A stretch of DNA of 64,000 nucleotides from Candidatus Levyibacteriota bacterium (GTDB lineage: Bacteria; Patescibacteriota; Microgenomatia; Levybacterales; UBA12049): contig CAWBPM010000002.1 of the NCBI GenBank assembly GCA_963790825.1, forward strand, positions 618,815 to 682,814. The letters are read 5' to 3'. The translations under genes and the position numbers were made by a program. A model generated the notes under the pieces. It had not been told where the DNA came from. It did no database searches and saw only the letters and a program-made list of their open reading frames with translations. Below are positions 1 through 62,559 of this stretch, piece by piece; within the stretch, counting starts at the first letter, position 1, and every line of letters begins with the position of its first letter.

Positions 1-796
1 GTTTAATTTTCTGTTCAACTATATACTCATGGAATGATTTGAGAAACTCTGATCCATTATCTGTTTGGATTGTATGAATCGGTGTTGGATTATTGCACTG
101 GAACTGCTTAAAAACCTCTCTTGCTGTTACTGAGGAGAGATCCGGTACATATACAACTAAGGCAAATTTTGTGTAAATATCAATCACACACATAAACAAA
201 TGTTTCTCAAAATTGATATAGACAACTACTGAATCCATCTCAATAAATCCAGGAGAAACTACCTTAGGAGACTTTCTCACTCTTAGCTTTTTGAACTTGT
301 TTTTTTGTTTCTGTGGGTAGACTTTCTTCTCAAATGTTAAGTGACGTCTTTTAAGTACTTTCCCAATAGTACTTTCTGCCAAGGTCTTAATACCCAGCTC
401 TTTGGCATACGCATCAACAAAGGGCTTGAGCATACTTTTACCAATATTCCCATGCTCATGCCTCATCTCTCTAATGAACTCAATTATTCTCCAGTCTGTC
501 TCCATCTTTCGCACATGGAGAGGTCTAGTTCCGTGTGGCACTAAACTGATTGTCCTTTTTCCGTTGTGTTCATAAGCATTTCTCCAGTTGTATAAGCTGC
601 TCTTCTTTATTTTGAATGCAGCAAGGGTTGGACGCAGTCCATACTTGTAGTAGTGATTAATCACGTGAAGGCGAAAAGCAGCTACATCGGATACTTCAAC
701 TGCTAATGAATTCTGGAGCATTTTCATCAGTATATGATAGCTCTTTTGTGAGTATTTTGGTCGTAAATGTCTTACTCGTTTAAAATCACTTGGCAT
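1..796 (-). CDS. IS481-like DDE transposase (HTH + rve integrase core); 3' end runs off window start
   Basis: Minus-strand frame from ATG (complement of 794-796) reads MPSDFKRVRHL...VINHYYKYGLRPTLAAFKI...HTIQTDNGSEFLKSFHEYIVEQKIK without stops to position 1. DNGSEF is the integrase-core signature also present in the second transposase at 48442-49515. An in-frame TGA lies just upstream of the ATG. The ORF is absent from the track because it has no stop inside the window. Confidence 0.7.
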   Translation of the reverse strand, partial: MPSDFKRVRHLRPKYSQKSYHILMKMLQNSLAVEVSDVAAFRLHVINHYYKYGLRPTLAAFKIKKSSLYNWRNAYEHNGKRTISLVPHGTRPLHVRKMETDWRIIEFIREMRHEHGNIGKSMLKPFVDAYAKELGIKTLAESTIGKVLKRRHLTFEKKVYPQKQKNKFKKLRVRKSPKVVSPGFIEMDSVVVYINFEKHLFMCVIDIYTKFALVVYVPDLSSVTAREVFKQFQCNNPTPIHTIQTDNGSEFLKSFHEYIVEQKIK

Positions 797-7996: not shown

Positions 7997-9244
7997 TTAA
8001 GAAGATTTTGCGGCTTGTAATCTCTTTACAACTTCGTCTAAGCTAAGAAGTTCTGCGCCAGCCGCGTTTGATTCGGTTCGCTTTTTCCATTCAATTTTTT
8101 CTTGGGTCTTTAAGCTAATAACCAAACGAACCGGAATTCCGATCAAATCCGCATCGGCAAATTTCTCTCCCGGACCGACTGTTTCCCGATCATCATACAA
8201 AACAGAAATGCCGGCTTTTTGTAGCTCATGATAAACGTTCTCTGCTCTATGTTTCACTATTTCATCATCCAAATTTAAACCAACCAGATGTACTACATAC
8301 GGTGCGACTGCTTCAGGCCAGATAATTCCCTTATCGTCATGAAATACCTCAACTATTGCCCCCAGGAGTCTGGTGAGTCCGATGCCATATGCGCCAAACC
8401 AGGCAAACTGCTCTTTGCCTAAATTATTAGTAAAAGAGACACCCATTTTTTTACTATACTCAATGCCATATTTAAAAATATTTCCTACTTCAATCGCTTT
8501 TTTTGTTTCAATTTCCGGATCTTTTAGTTCTTCCTCGGTCATAATTTCTTTATTTTTCCAAAACTTCCAGCCTTTTTTAAAATAAATTGTGTCTTCTCCG
8601 CTTTCAGATATTACTTGAAATTCATGTGTATGCGAGTTGGTGAAAACTCCGCCCGCAGCTTCGACTACAATTGCCTCCAAATTCATCCTTTTGAATATTT
8701 TCAGATACGCGTCTTTAACTTTCCAGTAGTAATCGTTCATTTCTTCTTCCGTCGCGTGCAGACTATAAAGGTCTTTCATTAAGAATTCCCGCTCCCGTAA
8801 AATGCCGGATTTTGCGCGCAGTTCATTTCTGAATTTAGTTGACATATGGTATAAAAGCAGCGGAAGATCACGATACGTTCTCATATGTTTTCTTGCCACA
8901 TCAAGAAAAATTTCCTCGTGGGTAAATGAAAGTGTAAATTCTTTATCGTTTTTTTTAAGCTTGTACATCACTTCGTCTGCCCGGTCCCACCTTCCCGTTT
9001 CATTCCAAATGTCTTTCGGATGCAGAAGCGGCATAAGCATTTCAGAAGCACCTGTTCTGTTTATTTCTTCGCGAATAATATCCTCGATTTTCCGTTCAAC
9101 AATCCGGCCAAGCGGCAGTAATGTATACGAGCCCGCCATCAATTTATCAATAAATCCACCGCGAAGCAGATACCGCGCATTGATCGCTACTTCGTCTTTT
9201 GGCGCTTCTTTTATGGTTTTCGGGAAGTGATGGGAATACCGCAT
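7997..9244 (-). CDS. proS: proline--tRNA ligase (compact form without the editing-domain insertion)
   Basis: MRYSHHFPKT.KE.P.DE.INARYLLRGGFI...GSYTLLPLG..V..KIEDIIREE, class II motifs, and a C-terminal anticodon-binding domain, 415 aa. Confidence 0.85.
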   Translation of the reverse strand: MRYSHHFPKTIKEAPKDEVAINARYLLRGGFIDKLMAGSYTLLPLGRIVERKIEDIIREEINRTGASEMLMPLLHPKDIWNETGRWDRADEVMYKLKKNDKEFTLSFTHEEIFLDVARKHMRTYRDLPLLLYHMSTKFRNELRAKSGILREREFLMKDLYSLHATEEEMNDYYWKVKDAYLKIFKRMNLEAIVVEAAGGVFTNSHTHEFQVISESGEDTIYFKKGWKFWKNKEIMTEEELKDPEIETKKAIEVGNIFKYGIEYSKKMGVSFTNNLGKEQFAWFGAYGIGLTRLLGAIVEVFHDDKGIIWPEAVAPYVVHLVGLNLDDEIVKHRAENVYHELQKAGISVLYDDRETVGPGEKFADADLIGIPVRLVISLKTQEKIEWKKRTESNAAGAELLSLDEVVKRLQAAKSS

Positions 9245-41726: not shown

Positions 41727-42251
41727 TTATTCGTTTAAATGAAATGTTTTAATTATTTTAGCTGGGGTCAGGCCGTCCCCTTTGATAAGAGAAATATTGT
41801 CGAAATTAGAGGTTATATGGATATTCATTCTTTCTGCTTCTCCGTAACCTTTTTCAAATAATTCTTTGTTAAAAACATTATTCTCTTTTCCAAAATAGCC
41901 AAGCGTTATATGAGGGCTAAATGGAATATCAGTTTGGAGATACGGAGCTAATATTCCAGAATACAATTTCTCATGCAGATTAACTATTTCTTCATCCCCT
42001 TCTTTAACTTGAAGAAAAAGATAGTCGTCAAAAGATTTTATTAAACCGCTTAAAACAATTGGGAAAGGTTTTACTTCTTTGCTAATCCTTTCAACATGCT
42101 CAGCAAGTTGGTTTTCAGAGATATCTGATACAGGAAAAACTATTGTTATATGCGGAGGAATTATCTTCCAACCAGGATCATATTTTCTCCTAAACTTATC
42201 AATCGCATTTGAATTTATTTTTGGAAAATATACTACAGCGAGTTGTTGCAC
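41727..42251 (-). CDS. 2H phosphoesterase superfamily protein (LigT / 2'-5' RNA ligase-like)
   Basis: Two H-x-T-x motifs in the two halves (HITIVF and HITLGYF), 174 aa. Confidence 0.7.
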   Translation of the reverse strand: MQQLAVVYFPKINSNAIDKFRRKYDPGWKIIPPHITIVFPVSDISENQLAEHVERISKEVKPFPIVLSGLIKSFDDYLFLQVKEGDEEIVNLHEKLYSGILAPYLQTDIPFSPHITLGYFGKENNVFNKELFEKGYGEAERMNIHITSNFDNISLIKGDGLTPAKIIKTFHLNE

Positions 42252-48441: not shown

Positions 48442-49515
48442 TCAAGACCTTGATTGGGCTGGGGTGATAAGTACCAGTTGAGGAGTTAATGTAGAAGCAT
48501 ACTCCAATGGTGTTTTGTAGTCAAGGGCTTGATGAGGGCGAATGCTGTTGTATTTGACTAACCATTCTGTTAAATCAACATTCGCTTCCGCTATGTCATC
48601 AAGCCCTACCTCTGAAAAATCGAGCCATTCTCTCTGCACTGTATGATTAAATTTTTCAAGACACGGGTTGTCTTTTGGGGTATGTGGACGAGAAAATATT
48701 TGTTGTATTGATAATTGTTCACAGGTATCTGAAAAGTGTTTCGCAAATTCTGATCCATTGTCTGAGTGTATGACTGACAATTTGTTCTCACTGAGGTATC
48801 GTAACCTCCTGAGAAAATCTGCGCCATTTTGTGATGAAGCTGTTGGATACACTCTTGCAAACCCAAGTTTTGTTTTATCATCCAAAGCGGTAAATATTAC
48901 TCTCCTTTGTCCATACCACCAGATAAGGATACTGTCGGTATGCCACAGTCTTCCCGGTTCCTTCATTGTGTGGATACGAATCCGTGGCTGTTTTGTCTTT
49001 CCTACCGTGTAGACTCGCTTCTTTTTCTTCTCTTGAAATAACTTGTGCTTTCGTATGACTCGTTCTATCTTCCAGGTTGTTATCTTCTGGTTATACCTGT
49101 TCTGATAAAGTACTTTCAGTTTTTGTTTACCTAGTTCCATGTTTTCTTTTCGAAGGATAATAATTTGTTTTTCTTCTTTTGCCGTTACCATCCATTCCCG
49201 TACCCTCTTGGGTCGCTTTGATTTCTCCTCTAAACAATATGCATTACTCCTGTCAAACCGTTGTACCCACCGCCTGAGACATTTGCGTGAAATCCCAAAA
49301 TGGAAAGCTGTTGTTGTTATATTCTCTTTCCCAACAGTATAATAGAATGCAATCCACTCCAATCGTAATCTCCCGTCGGAGGATATTCCTTCTTGTTTTG
49401 CCTGATAGCGATAGTAATCCCAGAAGTTCTCTTTTCCTTTTTGTATATCCCTCCATGTTTGGTACGTCCACGGATGGGCTGATACTGGCTTATGTGCTTT
49501 CGTTTTCATAGTCAC
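48442..49515 (-). CDS. IS481-like DDE transposase (HTH + rve integrase core)
   Basis: 357 aa. N-terminal HTH (FGISRKCLRRWVQRF) and DDE core with WHTDS...HSDNGSEF...RPHTPKDNPCLEKFNHTV. Confidence 0.85.
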   Translation of the reverse strand: MTMKTKAHKPVSAHPWTYQTWRDIQKGKENFWDYYRYQAKQEGISSDGRLRLEWIAFYYTVGKENITTTAFHFGISRKCLRRWVQRFDRSNAYCLEEKSKRPKRVREWMVTAKEEKQIIILRKENMELGKQKLKVLYQNRYNQKITTWKIERVIRKHKLFQEKKKKRVYTVGKTKQPRIRIHTMKEPGRLWHTDSILIWWYGQRRVIFTALDDKTKLGFARVYPTASSQNGADFLRRLRYLSENKLSVIHSDNGSEFAKHFSDTCEQLSIQQIFSRPHTPKDNPCLEKFNHTVQREWLDFSEVGLDDIAEANVDLTEWLVKYNSIRPHQALDYKTPLEYASTLTPQLVLITPAQSRS

Positions 49516-49620: not shown

Positions 49621-50616
49621 TTATACTGCTGCTACGTTTTTTCCTTCGTAGAATCCGCCGGCAACAGTCAGTTCCGCTTTAATCAGAGGATGTGGGTCAT
49701 AATTTTCCAGCAGTACATGTTCGGGTTTAATATCAGCCAAAGTTTTAACACTCGGATCGATAGTAATTGTCGGGAAAGGTTTCGGTTCACGTTTCAATTG
49801 TTCTTTTACTTGCTCAATATGATTCTCATAAATATGCACATCACCATACGAATGAATAAACTCGCCCGGTTCAAGATTTAATATTTTGGCCAGAATTACT
49901 GTCAAAAGTGCATAAGAAGCAATATTAAACGGAACACCTAAAAACAAATCGCAGCTTCTTTGATACAAAATCAGAGACAATTTTCCGTCCCGATTACTTA
50001 CCTGATACATATTGTGGCAAATCGGAAAACGGGATGCATTTTCAGAATCAGCCATCGTATAGAGATATTCCGGATTCCATGAATTGACAATAGCGTTATG
50101 AGCATTCGGATCCGCTTTCAACTCGTCTATTACCCATTGCAGCTGGTCGATGGTCCGGCCGGTCTTAGTCGGCCAGCGCCGCCACATTTCGCCGTAGATA
50201 CGCGGTAATTCTCCCCATTTGTTGGCAAATTTATCATCGGTTGCGATTTTTTCGATGAATTCTTCTTTCGTCATCACCGGTAAAACTAAATCCTCGACCA
50301 CTTTTTTATATGTTTTGTACGGATAGTCATCCCAAATATGTACATTGTTATCAACTAAATATTTTATGTTTGACCGTCCTGACATGAACCAAAATAGTTC
50401 GTACAAAACACCTTTCCAATAAACTTTTTTCGTAGTTAACAGAGGAAATCCTTGGGACAGATCGTATCTGGCTTGCTTACCGAATAAGCTGTATGTTACG
50501 ACACCTGTTCCGCGGTCGACTTGTTTTATGCCGGTATCTAAAATTTCCTGGAGTAAATTGAGGTATTGATATTCTAGATGATTTCTTTTAACTATTTTTA
50601 CCCCATTAGATTTCAT
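49621..50616 (-). CDS. thyA: thymidylate synthase (ThyA, long form with insertions)
   Basis: FPLLTTKK, LPICHNMYQ...LILYQRSCDLFLGVPFNIASYALL (catalytic Cys and dUMP-binding region), 331 aa. Confidence 0.9.
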   Translation of the reverse strand: MKSNGVKIVKRNHLEYQYLNLLQEILDTGIKQVDRGTGVVTYSLFGKQARYDLSQGFPLLTTKKVYWKGVLYELFWFMSGRSNIKYLVDNNVHIWDDYPYKTYKKVVEDLVLPVMTKEEFIEKIATDDKFANKWGELPRIYGEMWRRWPTKTGRTIDQLQWVIDELKADPNAHNAIVNSWNPEYLYTMADSENASRFPICHNMYQVSNRDGKLSLILYQRSCDLFLGVPFNIASYALLTVILAKILNLEPGEFIHSYGDVHIYENHIEQVKEQLKREPKPFPTITIDPSVKTLADIKPEHVLLENYDPHPLIKAELTVAGGFYEGKNVAAV

Positions 50617-50789: not shown

Positions 50790-50850
50790 TACGCATGCTT
50801 TCTAATTTAATTTTGAATTATGAATTTTAAATTTTGAATTTTTTATACTT
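50790..50850. repeat. TRAATTY heptamer tandem element (TAATTT TGAATTA TGAATTT TAAATTT TGAATTT)
   Basis: Lies between the thyA start and the stop of the dcd-like gene. Confidence 0.6.
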
Positions 50851-51382
50851 GCTTTTCTTTTTTCCTCGCCGTTACCCGTCCGCCTTGCCATTGCCCGCGG
50901 TACTGACTGCCTACGCCTTTTATCTCATGGAATATAACATGGACAAAGCGTGCTCCCATTTCGATCTCAACCGTAATCGGTCCTTCATTTTTTAAACCAA
51001 ACGTTAATTCTCCCTGATATCCCGGTTGAATCGGACCTGTCCTGATAAAAATCCCCGACCGGAACGTCGTCGTTCTAGGTAAAATAACTGCTGACAAATT
51101 AAGCGGCAAATTTATTTTCTCAATTGTTTTAACTAAGAAAAAATCACCCGGTTTTATTTTAATACTCTGTTTTTTCTTCGGGTCATATGTTTTAACTGTT
51201 TTTATATCTGCCGTCTGGCGATGCGTTTCACCTAAAAATGCTTTGCCAGAAATTTCATAGACTTCCCCCAAGCGTAAATCAAATCCCGCTCCTTCGGGAT
51301 TGGTAAGCTCCCGTTCCGAAAGATTTTCAACCAGTTTTTGTTTCTTAACCAATGTTAATAATTTCTTAGGTGAAAGTATCAT
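50843..51382 (-). CDS. dCTP deaminase/dUTPase-family protein (short paralog)
   Basis: GFDLRLGEVY...PIQPGYQGELTFGLKNEG (dUTPase-fold motif 3-like). Confidence 0.6.
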   Translation of the reverse strand: MILSPKKLLTLVKKQKLVENLSERELTNPEGAGFDLRLGEVYEISGKAFLGETHRQTADIKTVKTYDPKKKQSIKIKPGDFFLVKTIEKINLPLNLSAVILPRTTTFRSGIFIRTGPIQPGYQGELTFGLKNEGPITVEIEMGARFVHVIFHEIKGVGSQYRGQWQGGRVTARKKEKQV

Positions 51383-51509
51383 AAATTTATATATGCCTTA
51401 ATTTACTTATACCTTTTTACTAAATTCACTATCCTTCCGTCAAGTGGCTTTTTCCAATTTGTCATCCTGAGTTTATCTTATCCTTCCGAAATTTTAATGA
51501 AGGGGGATT

Positions 51510-52517
51510 TCAGGATCTCTTTTCGCTTTCATCTGCTAATTTTACCAATTCATTATATTGCTCACCTATTTGAGTAATCGCAAAAGGACTATCTTTTCTG
51601 CTTTTCAATTGATAAATAGTGACAGGTAACGTCGTAATGAGTTCTGCAAGTTTTACTTGAGATGTTAACGTATCTTTTTTATTATCAGTATTAACTTCTG
51701 TAACGATCGGTATCCCCCCGACTTCGTCTACCTGTGAAACCCCGGCTTGCAAATCAGCCCTGTTATACGCATGGACTGCCATATCGACATTTTGTATCTG
51801 AATGCTCTGGTTAAGAAGCGCTGTTATATACTGCCCAAATTGCTGGTAATGAATTGACGGTCCTGAAATGGCAGCCAGAATTGGCGTAACCGGACGGCTG
51901 AGATGAAGAGATTTTAAAACAGCCAGAGTCTCTTTCGTAAAATAAGCAAACGTATCATAATTTTGATCCCACCAAAAGTTCGACTCATTCGGTTCATTCC
52001 CTATTTCAAGCCATTCCACGCTTTTATGCTCAGTAATCGCCAGGAGATCCAATTTTATGAATTCTTTAATTTGGGTTTCATTTTGCTTAAGTTCCGAAAC
52101 TGTCTTGGGCATTGAGTGAATAAAACGAAGGACCGCACCGTTATCGACAAATGTGTAAAAAGGAAGCTCTCCGGGATCATAACAGAAAATTACTTTTTTA
52201 TTTTCTTTATCTGCCTCGGTCAGTTCTTCTTCAACCTGAGGATTATTTTCAAAAGTACCATCTACACTGACCAGAGAAGTAGGACTGCCGATTCGCAAGG
52301 TATTAATATGCAGTTTATCTGTCCCTTCTATCATTGACTGTTCAGAAACACTAACACCTATTCGTGAGTCATAGCTTGTTGTAGTTGTTTGAGAAGCAGA
52401 AACAGTTTCGGACGGATGAGGAAAACCTGTAGAATAGAAGGTAGAAGACAAAAGAGCAACAGATCCTAATATTTTTCTTATTTGGTTCCTAGGCTTTAGT
52501 TTTTCAACCTGCGCCAT
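51510..52517 (-). CDS. secreted glycoside-hydrolase-like protein (clan GH-A-like, NEP motif)
   Basis: N-terminal signal-like segment ILGSVALLSSTFYSTG. WLEIGNEPN is a typical catalytic acid/base motif of GH5/GH-A TIM-barrel enzymes. Confidence 0.45.
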   Translation of the reverse strand: MAQVEKLKPRNQIRKILGSVALLSSTFYSTGFPHPSETVSASQTTTTSYDSRIGVSVSEQSMIEGTDKLHINTLRIGSPTSLVSVDGTFENNPQVEEELTEADKENKKVIFCYDPGELPFYTFVDNGAVLRFIHSMPKTVSELKQNETQIKEFIKLDLLAITEHKSVEWLEIGNEPNESNFWWDQNYDTFAYFTKETLAVLKSLHLSRPVTPILAAISGPSIHYQQFGQYITALLNQSIQIQNVDMAVHAYNRADLQAGVSQVDEVGGIPIVTEVNTDNKKDTLTSQVKLAELITTLPVTIYQLKSRKDSPFAITQIGEQYNELVKLADESEKRS

Positions 52518-52550
52518 AGATATTTACAATTATACACCTCAGCTGTACAC

Positions 52551-52636
52551 ATAACCAATAACCAATAACCAATAACCAATAACCAATAACCAATAACCAA
52601 TAACCAATAACCAATAACCAATAACCAATAACCAAT
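52551..52636. repeat. Heptanucleotide microsatellite (ATAACCA)x12 in divergent promoter region
   Basis: Twelve perfect tandem copies at 52551-52634 plus a partial AT, lying between the start of the minus-strand GH-like gene (52517) and the start of the plus-strand Cys-rich protein gene (52679). A TTGACA lies immediately downstream at 52643-52648. Confidence 0.95.
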
Positions 52637-52678
52637 TATATTATTGACAAGTATATGAAACTCAAGTAGTCTAGACGT

Positions 52679-53440
52679 ATGAGGCTCTTCGCTAAATTGG
52701 TAATCTCGTTTTTTGTTTTTACGTTATTTATTTTTAATCCTCCTAAGATGTTCGCAGTTACTGCTCCCCCTATTTGTAGCGCAGTGACCGCGTTTAATCT
52801 TACCTGTTCTCTTTCGGGTACAGCTACGTTTACAGCTTCTTGGGATTTATCTGCATATGGAGTACCAGCAGCTAGTAATATTTGCAATATTTATGTTTAT
52901 GCTGGCAGCAATGCCCATACTATTAGTCATACGTGTGCTGGCAGCAATGTTAGCATTACGGTTCCTGCTGATAATTCTCCGACTGTTTCAATCTACGTAA
53001 GCAATGGAATTATTGGTGATGTATGTTATAATGCTCCTCAAGGCACCATAAATAATGCTTGTGCTCCTCCCACTGCTACACCAATCCCTGCTCCTACTAC
53101 TCCCCCTGTTAACATTTATGCAGGCTGCGAAGGCAGCGCGGCAGACAACGCGGCTGACGTCTGGAAGCTAGATTGTATTCCTGTTGTCGCAGGACAACTG
53201 GTTAATTATGCTCTCATTTTCCTAGGAATCGTCGCGGTTATATTTATTATCTATGCGGGCTACAAGTTTATTACTTCCCGCGGTGATCCGAAGCAGGTTG
53301 AAGGAGCCAGAAAAATTATTACTTACGTTCTTATCGGCATCACGATTATTTTACTTTCATTCTCTATTATAGCCTTCATTGCATATATTACGGGCGTAAC
53401 ATGTATCGATGGCTTTAGTCTACATGCATGTAACACGTAA
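52679..53440 (+). CDS. secreted Cys-rich protein with TrbC/VirB2-pilin-like C-terminal hydrophobic hairpin
   Basis: Signal peptide, then a 150-aa Cys/Thr/Ala-rich region (10 Cys) with a PTATPIPAPTTPP linker. C-terminal LVNYALIFLGIVAVIFIIYAGYKFITSRG...IITYVLIGITIILL has two TM segments with a short basic loop, as in TrbC/VirB2 pilins. Confidence 0.45.
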   Translation: MRLFAKLVISFFVFTLFIFNPPKMFAVTAPPICSAVTAFNLTCSLSGTATFTASWDLSAYGVPAASNICNIYVYAGSNAHTISHTCAGSNVSITVPADNSPTVSIYVSNGIIGDVCYNAPQGTINNACAPPTATPIPAPTTPPVNIYAGCEGSAADNAADVWKLDCIPVVAGQLVNYALIFLGIVAVIFIIYAGYKFITSRGDPKQVEGARKIITYVLIGITIILLSFSIIAFIAYITGVTCIDGFSLHACNT

Positions 53441-53469
53441 ATTATCCTCATGGAGATAAAAAATATCTA

Positions 53470-54102
53470 TTATTTCCCGTCTTTATAAATCCGTGATTCG
53501 TCGGGACCTTTTTGTCCGATATATTTTGCATTTTTCTTCTTCATGTAAGGAACATCCGCAGGGGTTGACAACTGGTCGAAAGTAAATGAACAAATCCGCA
53601 TTCCGGGGGTGAGCGCCACTGCCATTCTTCCCAAGTTACCAAGTTCCAATACCGGATGCCCATCCCACCCGGGATCGAAAATTGATGCAGTCGAATGCAC
53701 AACAATCCCGAGTCTTCCGAGTGACGATCTGCCTTCAAGTCTGCCGATCAAATCAGAACTGATTATTAACTTTTCAAGCGTTACAGCCAGGACGAAATCC
53801 CCTGGTTGCATTATAAATTGCTCCCCGTCTTTCACTACAATTTCCCGCGTAATCTCATTACTGTGTTCTTTTTTTGTCGGATCAATAAAAGGCATTTTAC
53901 TGTATTCAAATACTCTGAAATGATTACCAAGCCTTAGGTCAATTGAGCAACTCCCGAGCTGCAGCGATAAATCCGGTTTCGGCGTAATAATAATCCTCTT
54001 ACTCTTCAGCGCTTTTTTAATATCTCGGTCCGATAGAATCATGGGTAAAGTGTAACATGTACGTGGTATTTTGGGAAGGGGTAAGCTTGCCCGCATTGAC
54101 AA
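53470..54102 (-). CDS. dcd: dCTP deaminase (likely true start MILSDRDIKK at 54042)
   Basis: MILSDRDIKK...IDLRLGNHFRVF...FIMQPGDFVLA...GRSSLGRLGI..H..AS..DPGW.G, the canonical Dcd pattern. Confidence 0.8.
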   Translation of the reverse strand: MSMRASLPLPKIPRTCYTLPMILSDRDIKKALKSKRIIITPKPDLSLQLGSCSIDLRLGNHFRVFEYSKMPFIDPTKKEHSNEITREIVVKDGEQFIMQPGDFVLAVTLEKLIISSDLIGRLEGRSSLGRLGIVVHSTASIFDPGWDGHPVLELGNLGRMAVALTPGMRICSFTFDQLSTPADVPYMKKKNAKYIGQKGPDESRIYKDGK

Positions 54103-54132: not shown

Positions 54133-57100
54133 ATGCAATTTTCCTTGATAAAATTTTATCCAAAAAGCTTGCACGTTTTCCGTATTTTCTCTACTCGATT
54201 TCTCGGAGTTTTTATTGCTTTGCTATTATTTCAAGCTACTAGTCCGGTTCAAAAAGCTTATGCGCAATATGCTGGCAATTTATTACAAAATCCATCGTTT
54301 GATACTACTTCACCTAATTGGCCTTCTCCTTGGTATATGTCTGTTTATCCTGATGCTGCTGCTACGGTAACTCAGGATATGTCAACGTATGTTGATGGAA
54401 ATTCCTCCGCACGAGTCGATATCAATACAGCCAGTCCGACCTTTTGGCATATCCAGCTACTGCAAACCGATGTTCCAATATCTCAAGGCGTTTCTTATAC
54501 AATCACCTTTTGGGCTAAGGCAACAACAGCTCGTACTATCAACGTTGTTGATCAAATGGGACTCTATCCCTATAACTCTTATTTCAGTCAGGATATCGAT
54601 ATCACTACCTCATGGCAACAATATACAATTACATTTACTGCTCCCGTAAATGACTCGCGTTCTCTTTTTACTTTTAACATAGGACTGCAAACCGGTAGTG
54701 TTTGGTTCGATGCTACGTCATTCCACTTTACTCTGCCTGATGATTATTGTTATGGACAAGGTGTCTATTTATATACCAACATAAATTGGACTGGTGCGTG
54801 TGCTAGATTTACTGCTGATACTCCTGATTTAACCAGTAGCATAGGCAACGGCACTGCTCAATCCGTTAGACTTGTAGGTGACTACGCTGCGACATTGTAT
54901 TCGGGTACAAACTATACTGGATCATCAAGCGCAGTTACTTCCGATGTCGCTGATCTTAGTACCACTGATGTTGGTCAAAAAGCTGTTTCTTCATTACAAA
55001 TTGCCGTACCTACTCCGACTCCTACTATACTTCTTGCACCTACAGCTACTCCGAGCGGCACAACTTACTCGATTACCGGAAATGTTTATAATGATCTTAA
55101 TAAAAATGGCGCGAAAGATTTAAGTCCGACATGGCAACAACTTACCAGCACCGTTACTGTAGATTATAACGACAGAACCAGTCTGGGAATTTCTGTTATC
55201 ATGGAAGGCGCATCCGGTACAGATTCGTTTCAAGTAGATGATATTTCTTTACAATTGGACAGCGGCCCAAATCTAATCACCAACCCCGGGTGTGAGGCAG
55301 ATACAAGCGACTGGGCTGGAACGCAAGCAACTCTTTCACAAGATACGACAGATTTTCATTCGGGTAGCGCGTCTTGTAATGTTCAGCAAACTACCGGAGA
55401 TCAATTTTCAATAAGCGACCAACCGGCTACTGTAAGTAATCCTCCGATGGGACAACAATATACAGCTACTGTTTGGGTCCGTACCGATTCATTAAATAAA
55501 CCGGTTTGGCTGTCTATAACAATGTCCGGTGGAGCCAATCCTGACGTAACTACGTATAGCCCAGCATTTGCTATGAACTCTAGTGAACCGAACTACAGCG
55601 GAGGAGCTGTTATTCAGTTATCAGACGGAGAGCAAACGGTTACCGATGCGAATGGAAATTATGCTTTTAATAACGAGCCATCCGGAACATATACGGTATC
55701 GCTTGCCTCGACAAGTATTTATACCCCGACTACATCCTCTTCTCAAACAATTGATCTGACAAGTGGCGACCAAACTGTTAACTTCGGATTGTATTACACC
55801 AGCTATACTTTGGCGGGGAATGTATTCGTCGATACCAATGACGATGGAGTTCAAGACGGAAGCGAAACCGGTTTTCCCGCAGGAACTGTTACCATTGCAG
55901 GTCCTGTATCCAAACAAGTAACTACAGATTCAGCTGGAAATTATTCGATACCTAATCTTCCTACCGGTATTTATATTGTCCAATATGCATTACCGTTTGG
56001 TTATACAACATCCACGACCAATCCGGTTACGATAAGTCTGGTTGCCAATACCATAGTTAATTTCGGACTTTCTCCATATACTCCTGCAGTCCTTACCAAC
56101 TCATGTGGTGCTGCTGCTCCCGAAGCAGATATCATGCTTGTTCTTGATTCTTCCGGTTCAATGGGTGAAGGAAGCAAAATACATGATGCCATAGCAGCTG
56201 CACAAAGTTTCGTTGATACGGTTGCAAGTCAACACCCTGCAAGCCAGGTGGGATTAGTAACATATAGTACCACCGTCCATATTGTAGATCCATTAATGCA
56301 AGACCATGGTGCTAACCAAACAAAATTAGATCATGATTTGGGAACTGCTGTAGCAGACGGTACTACATGCGGTTTATGTGCTATGCAAGAAGCAGTTAAT
56401 CAGCTCGAAAGTGGACACCATGGTAACGATACGAGAGTAATTGTTTTTCTTACTGACGGAATCGAAAACTATTTGCCGGGAGGACATGATCAAGTCCCTC
56501 CGCAAACAGCTCAGGATCCGATTTTGGCTCTGGCAGATCAAGAACATAATGATCACGGAACGAGCTTCTTCACGATAGGACTGGGAACTGATGTTGACGC
56601 AAATTTCCTGCAAAAACTAGCTGACGATACCGAAGCGAAATATTACTTCACTCCTACTTCCGATCAACTAAATTCGATTTATGCCAGTATTTATTATGAA
56701 ATTACTCAGGGTGTCGGCCAAGTCAAGGGAACTGTGTATAAAGATGTTAATTTTAACCGCCGCTTAGATGCAGCTGATCTAGGACTGCCCAGTTGGATTG
56801 CCACCTTAAGCAATGGAACAACCACTTATACGCAAGTGACAGATGTATCCGGAAATTATACTTTCACCGGTATTTGTACCGGCGCATATACCTTGCAGGA
56901 GCAAGCACAACCCGGCTGGTTTCAGGACAGTCCGAGACACCCAAGCAACTATGCCATTAATGTCCTTAACAGTTCAGCCATAACCAAGAAAAACTTTGGT
57001 AATACCCAAGGATATACTGTAGCTGGTTTTGTTTTTGACGATAGAAATAAAAATCAAACTTTCGATTCCGACGAAACAGCATTTACGAGCGGACTTGATA

Positions 57101-58233
57101 TTACATTTACACCTACCAACGGCACTACTTCGACTGCCGGATCAGTGGTATATGATACCACATCCGGACAATACACTGTTCAGGGTTTATTGCCCGGATC
57201 ATACATAATTTCTTACTTAGGGCCTTTACCTGTCCACTATTTCCCTGTCTATCCGGTCGGTGCCCCTTTCCCGTCGTATGTTGTCACTGTCGGTCCCGGC
57301 TGCAGCGTTGACGGCACAACAGGAGGTAGTTGTGATCCTGCAGGTAGTATTTCAGATTTGGATTTCGCAATCAGCGATTCAACTCCCTGGATACAAATAC
57401 GAGGTTTAGACGGCAGATTCGATAATGGTTACGAAGATAAAATTCCTCCCGGTATTACGGCAGCTTGCGGACCATATGAAGCAGTTCCCCAATCTTCAAT
57501 TCCTCCGGCTACTCCCGGAATTATTTTCTCAGGTGACCAGACAAGTTTGTTTGACTCGGGATCATCATCTACTACCGGTTGGGTTGTCGGTGGGCCGACA
57601 TATCCGGAAGTATTTACCCCTAAAACTGCCGGCGTAATGAAAACTTCTTATAATTATCTTCTGAGTCTTGCTCAACAATCGAACGTACCAATTACCGATC
57701 TCTCAACCATTTGCAATCTGAGCAATTGTACTTTGCCTAACGGTCTTTCACACGGAGTTTACCAATCTAACGGTGATCTTACGTTAAATAGCTTTATATT
57801 CCAAGGAAATAGTAATTATGTCATATTGGTAGCTGGAAACTTACATGTTATGGGAAATATCCAAGTAACTTCCGGTAGTACTGCCATTTTTTCTGTTGGT
57901 AAAGATATTATTTTCGATAAAACTATCGGAGATCTTAATCCTATTTGTCCACCGACGTCTTCTCATATCGAAGGCTTATACAGTAGTGATCAGAACATCA
58001 TAATCGACGGTAATGACAATTGCGTGGTTGGTCCGGATAATATGCTAAACGTTCAAGGCGCATTGGTCGCCAATGCCGGTTCCACAGGCGGTTCGTTGCT
58101 TTTGCATAGAGATCTCTGCGGAAATAATTTTATTGGCCCGGCTTTAACTGTTACCCAGCGGCCTGATTTTATTCTAAATGCTCCTGATTTTATTAAGCAG
58201 CAAAACTATTTTTTCCAGGAAGTCGCCCCATAA
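54133..58233 (+). CDS. giant secreted surface protein: CBM4/9-like carbohydrate-binding modules + Cna-B/SdrD-type repeats + von Willebrand factor A domain + C-terminal beta-helix-like region
   Basis: Signal peptide FLGVFIALLLFQATSPVQKAYA. NLLQNPSFDTTSPNWPSPW...ITFWAKATTARTINVV is CBM4/9-like, and a second such module follows (GPNLITNPGCEADTSDWAG...VWVRTD). Repeated GNVYNDLNKNGAKD, GNVFVDTNDDGVQDGSETG and GTVYKDVNFNRRLD segments are SdrD-B/Cna-B-like. The vWA MIDAS motif is IMLVLDSSGSMGE...T...VIVFLTDG. Confidence 0.7.
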   Translation: MQFSLIKFYPKSLHVFRIFSTRFLGVFIALLLFQATSPVQKAYAQYAGNLLQNPSFDTTSPNWPSPWYMSVYPDAAATVTQDMSTYVDGNSSARVDINTASPTFWHIQLLQTDVPISQGVSYTITFWAKATTARTINVVDQMGLYPYNSYFSQDIDITTSWQQYTITFTAPVNDSRSLFTFNIGLQTGSVWFDATSFHFTLPDDYCYGQGVYLYTNINWTGACARFTADTPDLTSSIGNGTAQSVRLVGDYAATLYSGTNYTGSSSAVTSDVADLSTTDVGQKAVSSLQIAVPTPTPTILLAPTATPSGTTYSITGNVYNDLNKNGAKDLSPTWQQLTSTVTVDYNDRTSLGISVIMEGASGTDSFQVDDISLQLDSGPNLITNPGCEADTSDWAGTQATLSQDTTDFHSGSASCNVQQTTGDQFSISDQPATVSNPPMGQQYTATVWVRTDSLNKPVWLSITMSGGANPDVTTYSPAFAMNSSEPNYSGGAVIQLSDGEQTVTDANGNYAFNNEPSGTYTVSLASTSIYTPTTSSSQTIDLTSGDQTVNFGLYYTSYTLAGNVFVDTNDDGVQDGSETGFPAGTVTIAGPVSKQVTTDSAGNYSIPNLPTGIYIVQYALPFGYTTSTTNPVTISLVANTIVNFGLSPYTPAVLTNSCGAAAPEADIMLVLDSSGSMGEGSKIHDAIAAAQSFVDTVASQHPASQVGLVTYSTTVHIVDPLMQDHGANQTKLDHDLGTAVADGTTCGLCAMQEAVNQLESGHHGNDTRVIVFLTDGIENYLPGGHDQVPPQTAQDPILALADQEHNDHGTSFFTIGLGTDVDANFLQKLADDTEAKYYFTPTSDQLNSIYASIYYEITQGVGQVKGTVYKDVNFNRRLDAADLGLPSWIATLSNGTTTYTQVTDVSGNYTFTGICTGAYTLQEQAQPGWFQDSPRHPSNYAINVLNSSAITKKNFGNTQGYTVAGFVFDDRNKNQTFDSDETAFTSGLDITFTPTNGTTSTAGSVVYDTTSGQYTVQGLLPGSYIISYLGPLPVHYFPVYPVGAPFPSYVVTVGPGCSVDGTTGGSCDPAGSISDLDFAISDSTPWIQIRGLDGRFDNGYEDKIPPGITAACGPYEAVPQSSIPPATPGIIFSGDQTSLFDSGSSSTTGWVVGGPTYPEVFTPKTAGVMKTSYNYLLSLAQQSNVPITDLSTICNLSNCTLPNGLSHGVYQSNGDLTLNSFIFQGNSNYVILVAGNLHVMGNIQVTSGSTAIFSVGKDIIFDKTIGDLNPICPPTSSHIEGLYSSDQNIIIDGNDNCVVGPDNMLNVQGALVANAGSTGGSLLLHRDLCGNNFIGPALTVTQRPDFILNAPDFIKQQNYFFQEVAP

Positions 58234-58292
58234 AAAAAGCTTGCCTCTTCCTTATTGACAAGTTTGCCATAGTTTATTACGCTAATGTATAG

Positions 58293-61244
58293 ATGGAAAA
58301 TTCTACCGATCCTGTCGCGCGTATACCACGAAGTAAGGCAAGAATAGTAAGTATACTCTTCTTACTTCTCTTGGTTATTGCTATTCCGTTAACGGTTATT
58401 ACCTTGCAGCACCGTCAGGAAACCAGACAAAGGGCAAGTACTACGTCTATTCCCGCCTTCGTTCAAGAAAATGAAAATAAAATAACTTCCGGAACAACGG
58501 TCAGTACGACCTTTGCCAAACCAAACACTGCAGGTAATCTGATCGCTGTCTATGTGCTTTGGAACAACGCTGGGACAGCTTCGATAAAAGACAGTTTGGG
58601 AAATACCTACACCAGCGCAACTGGCCCTTTGAGTTGGAACAATAACACCTGGAGAGGACAGGTCTTTTACGCCAAAAATATCTTAGGTGGCTCCAACACG
58701 ATTACAGTCACCTTCTCGCAAGGTGTCACTTCTTTTGGCATTATGTATACACATGAGTATTCCGGCCTTGATCCTGCCAATCCTATTGATGTTACCCAGG
58801 GAGCAATTGGTACGTCTTCAGCTATGAGTAGCGGATTGGTAACGACAACCAATGCGAATGATCTTATCTTTGGAGCCGGAGCTTCAAGTGCAGGTATAAC
58901 CGCTGGAGAAAGTGGCTTTACTGTCAGAACAACTGGATATGGCAATATGACAGAAGACGAAGATGTGACTAATACCGGCTCGTATGCCGCAACAGCAACT
59001 CAGAATAGTGTTGCATGGATTATGCAAATGGTTGCTTTTAAAGCAGCTAGCACCACGCTTTCCCCAAGTCCAACTCTCGCCACAGGAACAGCTGGTGTTT
59101 GCAGTACAAATGCACCGGTTGACGTAGTTTTGCTTGTTGATACCTCTGGAAGTATGTCTGAGCCGGCACAATCTGGATCAACAGCAACAAAGATTACACA
59201 ACTAAAACAAGCAGCCACAAGCTTTGTTAACGGTGCTCTTGGACTAGCAAATAATAATTATGAAATAAGTCTTGTATCCTTCACAGATAAAGCAACCATA
59301 CTTTCAGATTTCACCAATAACGTCTCGACCTTAACATCCGACATAAACTCATTACAAGCAACGAACACCACCTGCACAGAATGCGGGGTAGACGCTGCTA
59401 ACCAAGAAATAACCAATCATGGCAGGAGCAATGTAAAAAAGGCTGTCATACTTCTAACCGATGGATTTGCAAACGTAATCGAAAAAACAGCCGGAAATTA
59501 CACAAGTTCAGTTGACCCTGCAAGCTGTACTGCAACTCAAAATAATGATAAAGCTTGTACGCTTGCTGAAACACCAACACTTTCATTAGTAACCACAGGA
59601 CACACTGCAAGCAATACAACATATTTTACAATTGGACTTGGCACAGCCGGAACTACAGTAAATCAAAACTTCCTCCAGCAAATTGCCGACAGCACGACAG
59701 GACAATACTATAACGATCCAACAGGAAACGATTTAACTAGTATCTATACCAATCTCCAAGAGGTCATAGGTCAAGGCGGCATAAGTGGTTTTGTCTTCAA
59801 TGATACCAATGCAAATGGCCAATACGATTCTACCGAAACGAAAGTGACGGGTAGAACTGTTACGCTCTCCTCAAGCGCGAGCGGAACCTCCACACAATCA
59901 ACCGTAACAGATGCGACAGGTGACTATTCGTTCGTTGGGCTATGTAACGGCAATTATACGATAACGGATAGCATTCCCTCAGGCAGCATTATTACCGACC
60001 CCAAGACAAATAACGGCGTATACATTGACACAATTACAAATGATCAAACAATCCCGAATCAAAACTTCGGAGAAGCAATAATTCCGACATCTACACCAAT
60101 ACCCACTCCCCCATCTGCTCCGGTAGTTACAATTAATGGTTGTATCACAGGACCTGTGAGTGGAACGAACAATTTAACCCTTTCCTGGAATGATAGTAAT
60201 GTCTCTTCAGTCAATATAGGGACAGACCCATCATATTCTACCTATTACGCTAAGAATGCTCCAGGAGTATTAAGCACAACAGCTCCCATAGGTTTTTTTG
60301 GGGGTAGCAGTAACGTCTCAGGATTACAACTCGTGCTTAGTCCTAATACCACTTACTATGCTACAGTTTGGGATGGAGTCACCAGTCAGCTAAGTAGTCA
60401 AGCTCCTTTCTCACTTTCTCTTTGCGCCACTCCAACTCCGACGGTAACATTAACACCGACACCAAAGCCGACGAATACACCCACTCCCACTGCGACTCCT
60501 GTACCGACGTCTACCCTAACACCCACACCCCGCCCGACGAATACACCTACTCCAACCCCAACTTTTACTCCTACACCTACTCCAAGACCAACCAGCACTC
60601 CGACACCTATTCCTACCGATACGCCCTTCCCAACCAGTACGCCGGTACCCCTAGCTACTACCCTTAATTTTACAGTGTTCCTCCACGGTATCGGAAACAG
60701 TGGAGATAATGCCAACCCGAATACTTTTTCTTTAAGTAATCACAGCCCGCTTCACCCGGAACGCCCAGCTACTATCGAAGTGTATGATAGTAATAATCAA
60801 CTCGTTAAAAGCACTACGGGTACACTCACGTACAGCAGTAATGCAGGAAATTTCACCGCCAATACTATTAGCCTAGGGACAGCATTTACTACCGGAGATT
60901 ACAATATTAAAATAAAAACAGATCGCTATCTGAAAAAATTAGTGCCGGGAATAGTACACATTACTGCCGGACAAAGTAATCTTGTACCAACGGTAACACT
61001 GGTTGCCGGAGATATTAACGGGGATAATAATTTAAATATCCTTGATTACAATACCTTGCTTGATTGCGGCTATGGAGCGTTTACTCCGCTTCCCATGACT
61101 GATCCGAACTCTCTTTATAACAGTGCTTCCTGTCAATCTCACCAGCCGTATGTGGCCAATGCTGATCTTAACGACGACGGAACTGTGGACTATACTGACT
61201 TCAATTTATTTGTCCGCGAGTTATCTGTACAAAATGGAGATTAA
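58293..61244 (+). CDS. membrane-anchored surface protein: lectin-like beta-sandwich + vWA + SdrD-B repeat + Pro/Thr linker + conserved beta module + C-terminal dockerin-type double EF-hand
   Basis: N-terminal TM helix [21 protein letters not shown]. vWA MIDAS motif [13 protein letters not shown]...[37 protein letters not shown] is SdrD-B-like. The (PT)n linker spans 60420-60660. The C-terminus [20 protein letters not shown]...[22 protein letters not shown] matches the dockerin calcium-binding loop pattern D.N.DG....D..L twice. Confidence 0.7.
60420..60660. repeat. Pro/Thr-linker coding repeats ([10 protein letters not shown]...)
   Basis: Degenerate tandem ACNCCNAC-type codon repeats. They generate spurious antisense ORFs at 60398-60715 and 60422-60667. 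Confidence 0.8.
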
Positions 61245-62559
61245 TAAAAAAAAAATTATTCACAAAGATGTATTCATAGGTTTGATTTTGGGACTTCTGG
61301 TTATTAGTATTCCCTTAACTGTTTTTATTTTGCAAAAATCACAGGAGAGCCGGTCTCGTGCTACTGCTGCTACGACCCTTTCTTTTATGCCCGCTTCTAC
61401 CCAGACCAGTCCGCTTCAGTTTACCGTGAATGATAGTTTTATACTTAATCCGACAATTAATCCCGGCACCAATTTAGTCACTTTGGTAAAATTGGAAATT
61501 ACCTATGATCCGTCTAAACTTGCACCGAACGGCGCGAATTCATTCGCGCCGAATACTGCAGCATTTCCGGTTATTACGCAACAGCCCATTTATTCCCCTG
61601 GGGTTATTCAAGTAATTATGGAAATCGGTAGCAACCCCACTAATGCAATTCAGACAACAACCAGCCTGGGTACGATTAGTTTTAATGCGCTTTCTCCAAC
61701 AACTTCGGGAACTCCGACACAGGTAGTTTATACAACTACTTCTGAAGTGCTTTCACTTGGCAGTAATGACCAAGCTGCAGAAAATGTGCTTTCTTCAACA
61801 ACTCCTGCTTTTATCGAAATCAATTCACCAATTCCGACTCCCACTAATACCCCTGTTCCTACATTAACTCCGACACCAACATTACTTCCGACGAATACTC
61901 CCACCCCAACACCTACCAGTACGCCGATTCCGACGGATACGCCTTTCCCGACCAGTACTCCGGTACCGTTGTCCACAGTCCTTAACTTCACTGTCTTTCT
62001 CCACGGCATCGGCAACAGCGGAGACAACGCTAACCCGAATACTTTTTCTTTAAGTAATCACAATCCGCTACATCCGGAGCGTAATCTCTCAGTTGAGATT
62101 TATGATAAGACAAATCAGTTTGTTTCTTCGTCTTCAGGAACTCTCGTGTTTGACGCGAATGCAGGAAACTTTAGCGCAAGTATTGATATGGGGACTGCTT
62201 TTTTGACAGGTGATTATAATATTTACATCAAATCAGATAAATATCTCAAGAAACTTATTCCCGGAATTCAAAAAATAACAGCCGGACAAACAAATACTGC
62301 AGTAGTAACAACGCTTATTGCCGGAGATATCAATGACGATAATACGCTTGATATTCTTGATTATAATGCCCTTTTAGATTGCGGCTATGGAGAAATAACC
62401 TCGCTTCCCATGACAGATCCGAATTCCGTATTTAATAGCGCGATGTGCCAAGCACACCAACCGTATACTATTAATACAGATTTGAATGATGACGGGATTA
62501 TTGATGCAACCGACTTTAATCTTTTTATTCGTGAACTATCTGTACAAAATGGAGATTAA
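61234..62559 (+). CDS. membrane-anchored cohesin-like + Pro/Thr linker + conserved beta module + dockerin protein (paralog 2)
   Basis: Start taken at [12 protein letters not shown] (ATG 61234-61236, overlapping the stop of the upstream gene). TM helix [21 protein letters not shown]. The N-terminal domain [39 protein letters not shown]...[10 protein letters not shown] resembles cohesin strands, including the YDP..L motif. The C-terminal 190 aa are about 85% DNA-identical to 60640-61244, including the dockerin repeats [20 protein letters not shown] and [22 protein letters not shown]. Confidence 0.65.
61835..61975. repeat. Pro/Thr-linker coding repeats in paralog 2
   Basis: [45 protein letters not shown]; spurious antisense ORF at 61728-62027. 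Confidence 0.8.

Follow-up and report, generated by a model that had tools for sequence, protein, structure and literature searches.

Within the 64-kb window, by which we mean the whole stretch of 64,000 nucleotides analysed here, a 161-bp intergenic region between two divergent ORFs holds an array of the heptanucleotide ATAACCA (Table 1). TRF reports a period of 7, 12.3 copies, 100% matches, 0 indels and a score of 172, which on direct reading corresponds to 12 full units followed by AT. This bears out the sequence-only reading of the locus, which had described a perfect twelve-copy heptamer repeat between divergent genes for surface proteins. The array is non-coding and 71% A+T; it runs uninterrupted over 86 bp and has sharp edges that lack degenerate units. 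Among the perfect tandem repeats of the window it ranks first in length and is the sole long one, the runner-up measuring 24 nt. In having no second long simple-sequence repeat (SSR) in 64 kb, the window differs from the genomes of classical contingency organisms, which are rich in SSRs. The 14-mer ATAACCAATAACCA, allowed up to two mismatches, has 11 matches in the window, all 11 of them within the array, against 0.9 expected from shuffles. The unit forms this single array in the window, where it is absent elsewhere on either strand, and the array has neither an inverted partner nor a complementary arm there.

Table 1. Genes, repeat and predicted promoter elements at the locus (positions in the window)
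Feature	Positions	Strand	Basis or remark
ATAACCA array, (ATAACCA)x12 + AT	52551..52636	.	TRF and direct reading of the sequence
orf335, secreted or membrane-anchored, putatively clan GH-A-like (TIM-barrel glycoside-hydrolase-like)	51510..52517	-	profile and motifs
Pilin-like gene, 253 aa, 10 Cys	52679..53440	+	PF18895 match, T4SS_pilin (VirB2-like)
TTGACA, predicted -35 of the pilin-like gene	52644..52649	+	follows the array at a distance of 7 nt
TAGTCT, predicted weak -10 of the pilin-like gene	52667..52672	+	spacer 17 nt, ends 6 nt before the ATG
TATAAT, predicted -10 of orf335	52529..52534	-	ends 11 nt before the ATG
TTGGTTA (first array unit), predicted weak -35-like element of orf335	52552..52558	-	from sequence arithmetic
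TTTTCA-18-TACAAT, alternative promoter-like match left of the array	52501..52530	+	9/12 match, weak

The array is a genuine heptanucleotide microsatellite. The sequence-only reading had allowed for an assembly artefact; as far as the presence of the repeat is concerned, the reads dispose of this worry, since both junctions, each comprising unique flank and 30 nt of repeat, recur exactly when run ERR11594402 is assembled independently (Logan, k=31). The copy number of 12 is that of the source assembly alone. An artefact in which the array or its copy number is not as written would be in keeping with the error-prone assembly of tandem repeats, with the break, within the array, of the two Logan contigs that carry the flanking genes, and with the position at contig ends of 56 of the 135 similar arrays listed elsewhere, where assemblies are thus often broken. 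Given the two reproduced junctions, however, and a source that is one single contig of 751,017 bp, we regard it as extremely improbable. The array was probably born by slippage and, by analogy with the general behaviour of SSRs, is probably hypermutable; its sharp edges and its outlying perfect copy number point to recent or ongoing slippage.

Other identities of the array were considered and rejected. As coding sequence it would be interrupted on the plus strand, in all three frames, by a TAA at intervals of 21 nt. The minus strand is open and reads as WLLVIGY repeats, but an in-frame TAA 9 nt upstream of the orf335 ATG separates it from orf335, so that the array is not part of that ORF, and this open reading is also cut off from the ORF at 52636-52887 by the stop codon of the latter. 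No rotation of the unit fits TAnnnT on either strand; the array therefore has no -10 of its own and was discarded as a promoter in its own right. A replication origin was likewise discarded, as there is no GC-skew turn at 52.5 kb, and no known RNA families or tRNAs were found in the 64-kb window.

The flanking genes and their locus

The product of orf335, the left-hand gene, has a signal-peptide-like N-terminus, and the gene is followed on the same strand by dcd1 and then thyA. The protein has no Pfam match. An exhaustive HMMER scan collected ten proteins at E<=1e-3, the query included, the nine others being distant relatives, and in their alignment E171-x-G-N-E175, H249-x-Y251 and E274 (NEP, HxY and TE motifs) are invariant. 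The corresponding profile matches the structures of the GH39 beta-xylosidase 1px8 (E=6e-5) and of the GH5 CelA 4xzb (E=7e-4). Assignment to clan GH-A, which has this 10-sequence profile as its basis, the AlphaFold single-sequence model having a pLDDT of 31, appears reasonable, and the earlier description of the gene as GH-like agrees with it. A word-indexed search of a 5.8-billion-protein index returned no match but itself for orf335 and equally for the pilin-like protein, and no relative of orf335 was found among the GTDB species representatives; as judged from these searches, both genes are near-orphans. The closest relative of orf335, P0003 (34% identity), was set aside for the comparison of loci, as it lies within an operon on a 3.4-kb contig without the upstream intergenic region and is thus uninformative.

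The protein encoded on the right combines a signal-peptide-like N-terminus, a Pro/Thr linker and a C-terminal T4SS_pilin domain. Its match to PF18895 (E=5.4e-7, 30 bits) lies above the Pfam cut-off of 26.6, which upholds the label pilin-like that had been given to it from the sequence. The public annotation gives it 230 aa, counted from the second ATG (52748). The 253-aa form, which starts at 52679, gains a typical signal peptide, and this gain, together with the fit of TTGACA-17-TAGTCT-6-ATG, suggests that the deposited version probably lacks the first 23 codons (52679-52747). As the dcd gene that comes next is convergent, the pilin-like gene is monocistronic. VirB2-like pilins are common, highly variable and often arrayed in Microgenomates and Saccharibacteria, and they are essential in one cultivated Saccharibacterium (bioRxiv 10.1101/2025.01.22.634366). 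Further to the right, a run of very large secreted proteins with CBM_4_9, SdrD_B, VWA and SpaA-like domains is encoded at 54133-62559, with a Pro/Thr-coding repeat (30-bp x2.5) at 60542-60617, and is followed by a gene for a cohesin/dockerin-like protein.

The neighbouring genes for dCTP-deaminase-like proteins and thymidylate synthase are 65-83% identical to those of Levyibacteriota and other Microgenomates-group/Patescibacteria MAGs. The organism is an ultra-small bacterium of the Microgenomates group, and MAGs of Levyibacteriota are the nearest to it. In the closest relatives (L003, L005 and L007, compared with positions 50843-54102 of the window), the order is dcd2-tmk-dcd1-thyA on one strand. 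In the window, the slot of tmk is taken by the pilin-like gene, on the opposite strand, the array and orf335, and tmk is absent elsewhere in the 64 kb. A gene for an rve-family integrase (48442-49515) lies just beyond thyA, about 3 kb from this segment. The replacement of tmk within a conserved operon and the nearby integrase gene point to an evolutionarily young segment of pilin-like gene, array and orf335. A mobile cassette was nonetheless rejected, as flanking direct or inverted repeats were not found around the segment. Exact-protein look-ups with orf335, the pilin-like protein, dcd1 and dcd2 returned ERR11594402 alone, so that, beyond the source genome, this one run is the only record of the strain and of the two flanking genes; the left junction of the array was not found in the JGI metagenomes. 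The Logan contig that carries orf335 and dcd1 (L002) stops within thyA, at about position 50127 of the window, where TRF reports no repeat; this stop may reflect strain-level polymorphism or a drop of coverage in the sample.

Predicted promoters on either side of the array

Upstream of the 56 ORFs of the window, Shine-Dalgarno-like tetramers seldom occur at the normal distance from the start codon, and 20 of these ORFs have a -10-like hexamer whose end lies 5-12 nt ahead of it, against 1.6 expected from the overall density of such hexamers. [quoted passage not shown] Examples of TATAAT- or TATACT-like boxes close to the start are found at 7997-9244 (minus strand), 15204 (plus), 33351 (plus) and 41727-42251 (minus).

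The TTGACA hexamer just downstream of the array, to which the sequence-only reading had drawn attention, is very probably the -35 of the pilin-like gene. A distance of 29-32 nt between TTGACA and ATG is common to this gene and to the two large surface genes at 54133 and 58293, as is the layout TTGACA-17-TAnnCT-6..9-ATG; the latter two, VWA/SdrD genes, possess their own, near-identical promoters of the form TTGACA-17-TACGCT-8/9-ATG. The prediction of TAGTCT as the -10 of the pilin-like gene draws on the sequence and on the positions of -10 boxes across the window. The earlier proposal of control over the first genes of the surface locus is not supported if these are taken as one block, since the pilin-like gene is monocistronic and the genes at 54133 and 58293 have TTGACA promoters of their own.

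On the other side, the predicted promoter of orf335 reads TTGGTT-18-TATAAT (52558-52529), followed by 11 nt and the ATG. Its -35-like element could be either TTGGTT, at a spacer of 18 nt, or TGGTTA, at 17 nt, and the unit that supplies it is present at any copy number. With regard to the predicted promoters, the array abuts or overlaps both, its first unit being the -35-like element of orf335 and its other end lying 7 nt before TTGACA. By consensus and by the window-wide pattern, both core promoters are accordingly predicted to lie outside the array, save for the edge unit that would act as the -35 of orf335. The sequence-only reading had also pointed to CCAAT within the repeat. This motif is present, at the junction of units, but as a promoter motif it is eukaryotic and is not known to play a role in bacteria. 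The promoter-like TTTTCA-18-TACAAT to the left of the array was the only match found, 2.2 matches being expected by chance, and its use would place the array in a 142-nt 5'UTR of the pilin-like gene.

Heptamer arrays in the lineage and beyond

The window contains 12 period-7 arrays, as compared with 1.9 expected from block-wise dinucleotide shuffles; besides ATAACCA, heptamer arrays are found at 3993, 4343, 5914, 5955, 7562, 22184, 30201, 30274 and 50809. Similar arrays recur in relatives (L005-L045): 565 kb from 43 related genomes hold 146 period-7 arrays against 19.8 in shuffles, an excess of about 7-fold, and 36 period-14 arrays against 3.6 expected. The 146 arrays have a median of 4.3 copies, typically 4-5, and nearly every one has its own unit. 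The maximum among them is 8.6 copies, in an imperfect array, and the longest perfect one reaches 5.4, as compared with the 12.3 perfect copies of the ATAACCA array. This lineage thus readily makes heptamer arrays, which sufficiently explains the origin of the array studied here. We found no description of such an excess in Microgenomates-group genomes in the searchable literature.

Heptamer arrays of various units (AAAGTCA, AAAGTTC, AGTGCAA and others) are also seen in frame within thyA of relatives (L009, L011, L013, L014, L016-L019, L021, L023, L027, L030, L033, L035, L037 and L043), always in the same segment of an 11-residue surface loop at about nt 285-300. The loop has the same length as in homologues without periodicity, and the periodicity therefore arises in place and not by insertion. 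Slippage by a single unit would cause a frameshift in these genes. The thyA of the window (49621-50616) has no heptamer array.

The ATAACCA unit itself is widespread. Arrays of at least 4 copies occur in 15 IMG/VR contigs and arrays of at least 5 copies in more than 120 metagenome contigs; among the matches listed, the GC content ranges from 26 to 68%, the arrays reach up to 38 copies, and they are mostly intergenic or at contig ends. That more than 135 unrelated contigs, of metagenomic and viral origin, carry arrays of the unit indicates that it arises easily without a specific function. Examples with 11 to 38 copies are those of L051 (4163-4239; IMG/VR, GC 26%), L165 (7973-8253), L071 and L073, and on a low-GC viral contig an 11-copy array lies between divergent ORFs.

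Possible roles of the array

The reading that we prefer, and to which we attach a probability of about 0.45, is that the array fills the space between two divergent, predicted leaderless promoters, and that any regulatory effect it has would be graded and rheostat-like. The array would have arisen by slippage in a lineage prone to heptamer arrays. On the right it would end 7 bp before the pilin promoter and form the A+T-rich -40 to -60 region of the latter, while on the left its first unit would supply the -35-like TTGGTT(A) of the orf335 promoter. Since the array is periodic, the 20-40 bp of DNA next to each promoter would remain unchanged upon gain or loss of a unit. With the predicted promoters outside the array, and the array itself periodic and untranslated, a change in unit number should alter neither the -35/-10 spacing nor a reading frame, contrary to the earlier suggestion that it would alter the spacing or phase of a promoter. 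What would vary is the separation between the two promoters, by 7 bp for each unit, which amounts to a helical rotation of about 240 degrees, and it is because this separation alone would vary that any regulatory effect is expected to be graded. At n=12 the predicted transcription start sites are about 157 bp apart. We infer that footprints of the polymerase (and its alpha-CTD), which extend to about -60, would start to collide below approximately 7 units. The genes affected would be the pilin-like gene and orf335 alone, with perhaps dcd1-thyA downstream of the latter.

Several traits of the rheostat class are present, namely 12.3 perfect units, a unit length of 7, which is not divisible by 3, and an intergenic position upstream of genes for surface or secreted proteins. 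SSRs in promoters are associated with graded expression and change at a rate of about 1e-3 per division (PMC11475388). By analogy, a rheostat of the HMW or nadA kind is plausible, if unproven, although the effect of a gain or loss of one unit may be nil, given the invariant core promoters and proximal upstream DNA. It is tempting to speculate further that this is a true contingency locus, in which array length varies in the population and heritably sets the balance between pilin-like and GH-like proteins in a CPR episymbiont, and in which the array is a runaway member of an undescribed, lineage-wide and STRR-like class of heptamer arrays in Microgenomates. We consider this reading rather doubtful.

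Nearly as likely as an adjustable spacer is a selectively neutral microsatellite, a by-product of this lineage's heptamer slippage in a recently rearranged intergenic region, which would leave expression unaffected even if its length varied. Neutrality would be consistent with the presence of heptamer arrays throughout the lineage, even within thyA, with the recurrence of the ATAACCA unit in more than 135 unrelated contigs whose GC content spans 26-68%, and with core promoters and proximal upstream DNA that do not depend on the copy number. It would also fit the youth of the segment, in which tmk has been replaced and from which the integrase gene is 3 kb away. On the other hand, the copy number of the array makes it an outlier by more than 2-fold, it is the sole long perfect array seen, and it lies exactly between the promoters of two genes for secreted or surface proteins, which is the classic location of a functional SSR. 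Moreover, 86 bp of neutral DNA would be unusual in a streamlined genome of 751 kb with short intergenic regions.

The remaining explanations assign the array a more direct role. A classical ON/OFF switch that acts through promoter spacing, of the hifA/hifB (TA)n type, could be suspected where an SSR separates two divergent genes, one for a pilin-like and the other for a secreted protein; it is nevertheless very improbable, as neither predicted promoter has the array between its -35 and its -10, as 86 bp far exceeds any promoter spacer and as no rotation of the unit yields a TAnnnT -10. Alternatively, the array could be transcribed, from a promoter beyond it, as part of a long 5'UTR, where its length would set the structure, processing or stability of the mRNA. 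Such promoters could be TTTTCA-18-TACAAT on the plus strand, left of the array, or, as read from the sequence, TTGAGT-16-TAATAT (8/12) on the minus strand, right of it, and the HMW precedent too has a 7-bp unit (PMC12721329). The former match, however, is within chance expectation, array-containing leaders fold no better than shuffles in either orientation (z +1.04 and +0.92), and there is no complementary arm. The genome, in addition, appears overwhelmingly leaderless, with a proximal promoter for each of the two genes, and we give this mechanism a slight chance. A small chance is also left for an array of binding sites, to which a regulator or nucleoid protein specific for TTGGTTA/TAACCAA would bind with an occupancy that scales with the copy number. 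The presence of twelve identical sites close to promoters makes this plausible in principle, but with up to one mismatch TAACCAATAA occurs 9 times outside the array against 9.25 expected, and hence there is no dispersed regulon motif; nor was a regulator gene found adjacent to the array. The unit of 7 bp is also shorter than a protein site or iteron (about 17-22 bp), and sites whose centres are 7 bp apart are too closely packed for dimeric regulators or iterons of the typical kind.

In comparison with known systems, the locus invites a parallel with hmw1A/hmw2A. The (ATCTTTC)n repeat of H. influenzae hmw is transcribed from an upstream promoter (P2) and pairs with a G-rich arm in a 5'UTR hairpin that is cleaved by RNase III (PMC12721329), and the heptamer overlaps the -35 of promoter P1 and the -10 of P2 (PMC8262952). 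Both repeats are heptanucleotide arrays of at least 10 perfect copies, intergenic and upstream of a surface adhesin-type gene, and in both, the -35 of the proximal promoter overlaps the terminal repeat, as predicted in our case. Graded rather than on/off regulation would be expected here as well (PMC8262952; PMC11475388). In contrast to hmw1A/hmw2A, the array studied here has no complementary arm and no stable fold, the genes look leaderless and the repeat is common to two divergent genes.

The effect of the nadA repeat of N. meningitidis depends on NadR and IHF. This (TAAA)n repeat lies upstream of the core promoter, where its copy number shifts the distance or phase of upstream elements so that expression levels vary (PMC11475388). 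The location of the SSR upstream of a core promoter whose -35/-10 spacing is unaffected would be the same in our locus. The unit of nadA, however, is a tetranucleotide and not a heptanucleotide, and as no counterpart of NadR or IHF was identified at our locus, the sole 'upstream element' here would be the other promoter. In the case of hifA/hifB of H. influenzae, (TA)n is the -35/-10 spacer of both overlapping divergent fimbrial promoters. Divergent genes, among them one for a pilus subunit, with an SSR in their common control region are thus shared with the present locus, where, unlike in hifA/hifB, the array is located outside both predicted promoter spacers.

CPR bacteria, which have very few regulators, are believed to live attached to host cells. 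Stochastic surface variation driven by repeats evolved in just such a setting among pathogens with small genomes. No paper linking SSRs or phase variation with CPR bacteria was found in the searchable literature. If it proved true, a repeat-length rheostat on the pilin-like gene would be the first example of contingency regulation in CPR and the first SSR-driven variation of phase or level described in the Candidate Phyla Radiation; if the array proved invariant, it would be an ordinary microsatellite.

The heptamer arrays of this lineage also recall the cyanobacterial STRRs (short tandemly repeated repetitive sequences), 7-bp units that form hairpins between hupS and hupL (PMC2670836). In both cases tandem 7-bp units are mostly intergenic and abundant across the lineage, and inverted pairs of heptamer arrays in relatives likewise form intergenic hairpins. 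STRR families, however, reuse few units at many loci, whereas here nearly every array has its own unit; the ATAACCA array has no inverted partner and is single in 64 kb, and the phylum differs. The STRR2 unit that Mazel et al. described in 1990 is said to be TTGGTCA, from which TTGGTTA differs by one base.

Many of the heptamer arrays of this lineage abut stop or start codons. Between tandem genes, one array comes right after the stop codon, and the next start codon is immediately preceded by a second array, approximately the reverse complement of the first. The hairpins into which such paired inverted arrays fold are long and imperfect (z -3 to -6), for instance in L042 (12665-12733), L015 (13335-13432), L031 (8577-8687), L019 (8631-8710), L014 (5087-5164) and L033 (9251-9317). 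The start-proximal arms of these hairpins often carry -10-like hexamers (TAGAAT, CATAAT), and it is possible that the pairs act as terminator, processing or coupling elements with periodic arms.
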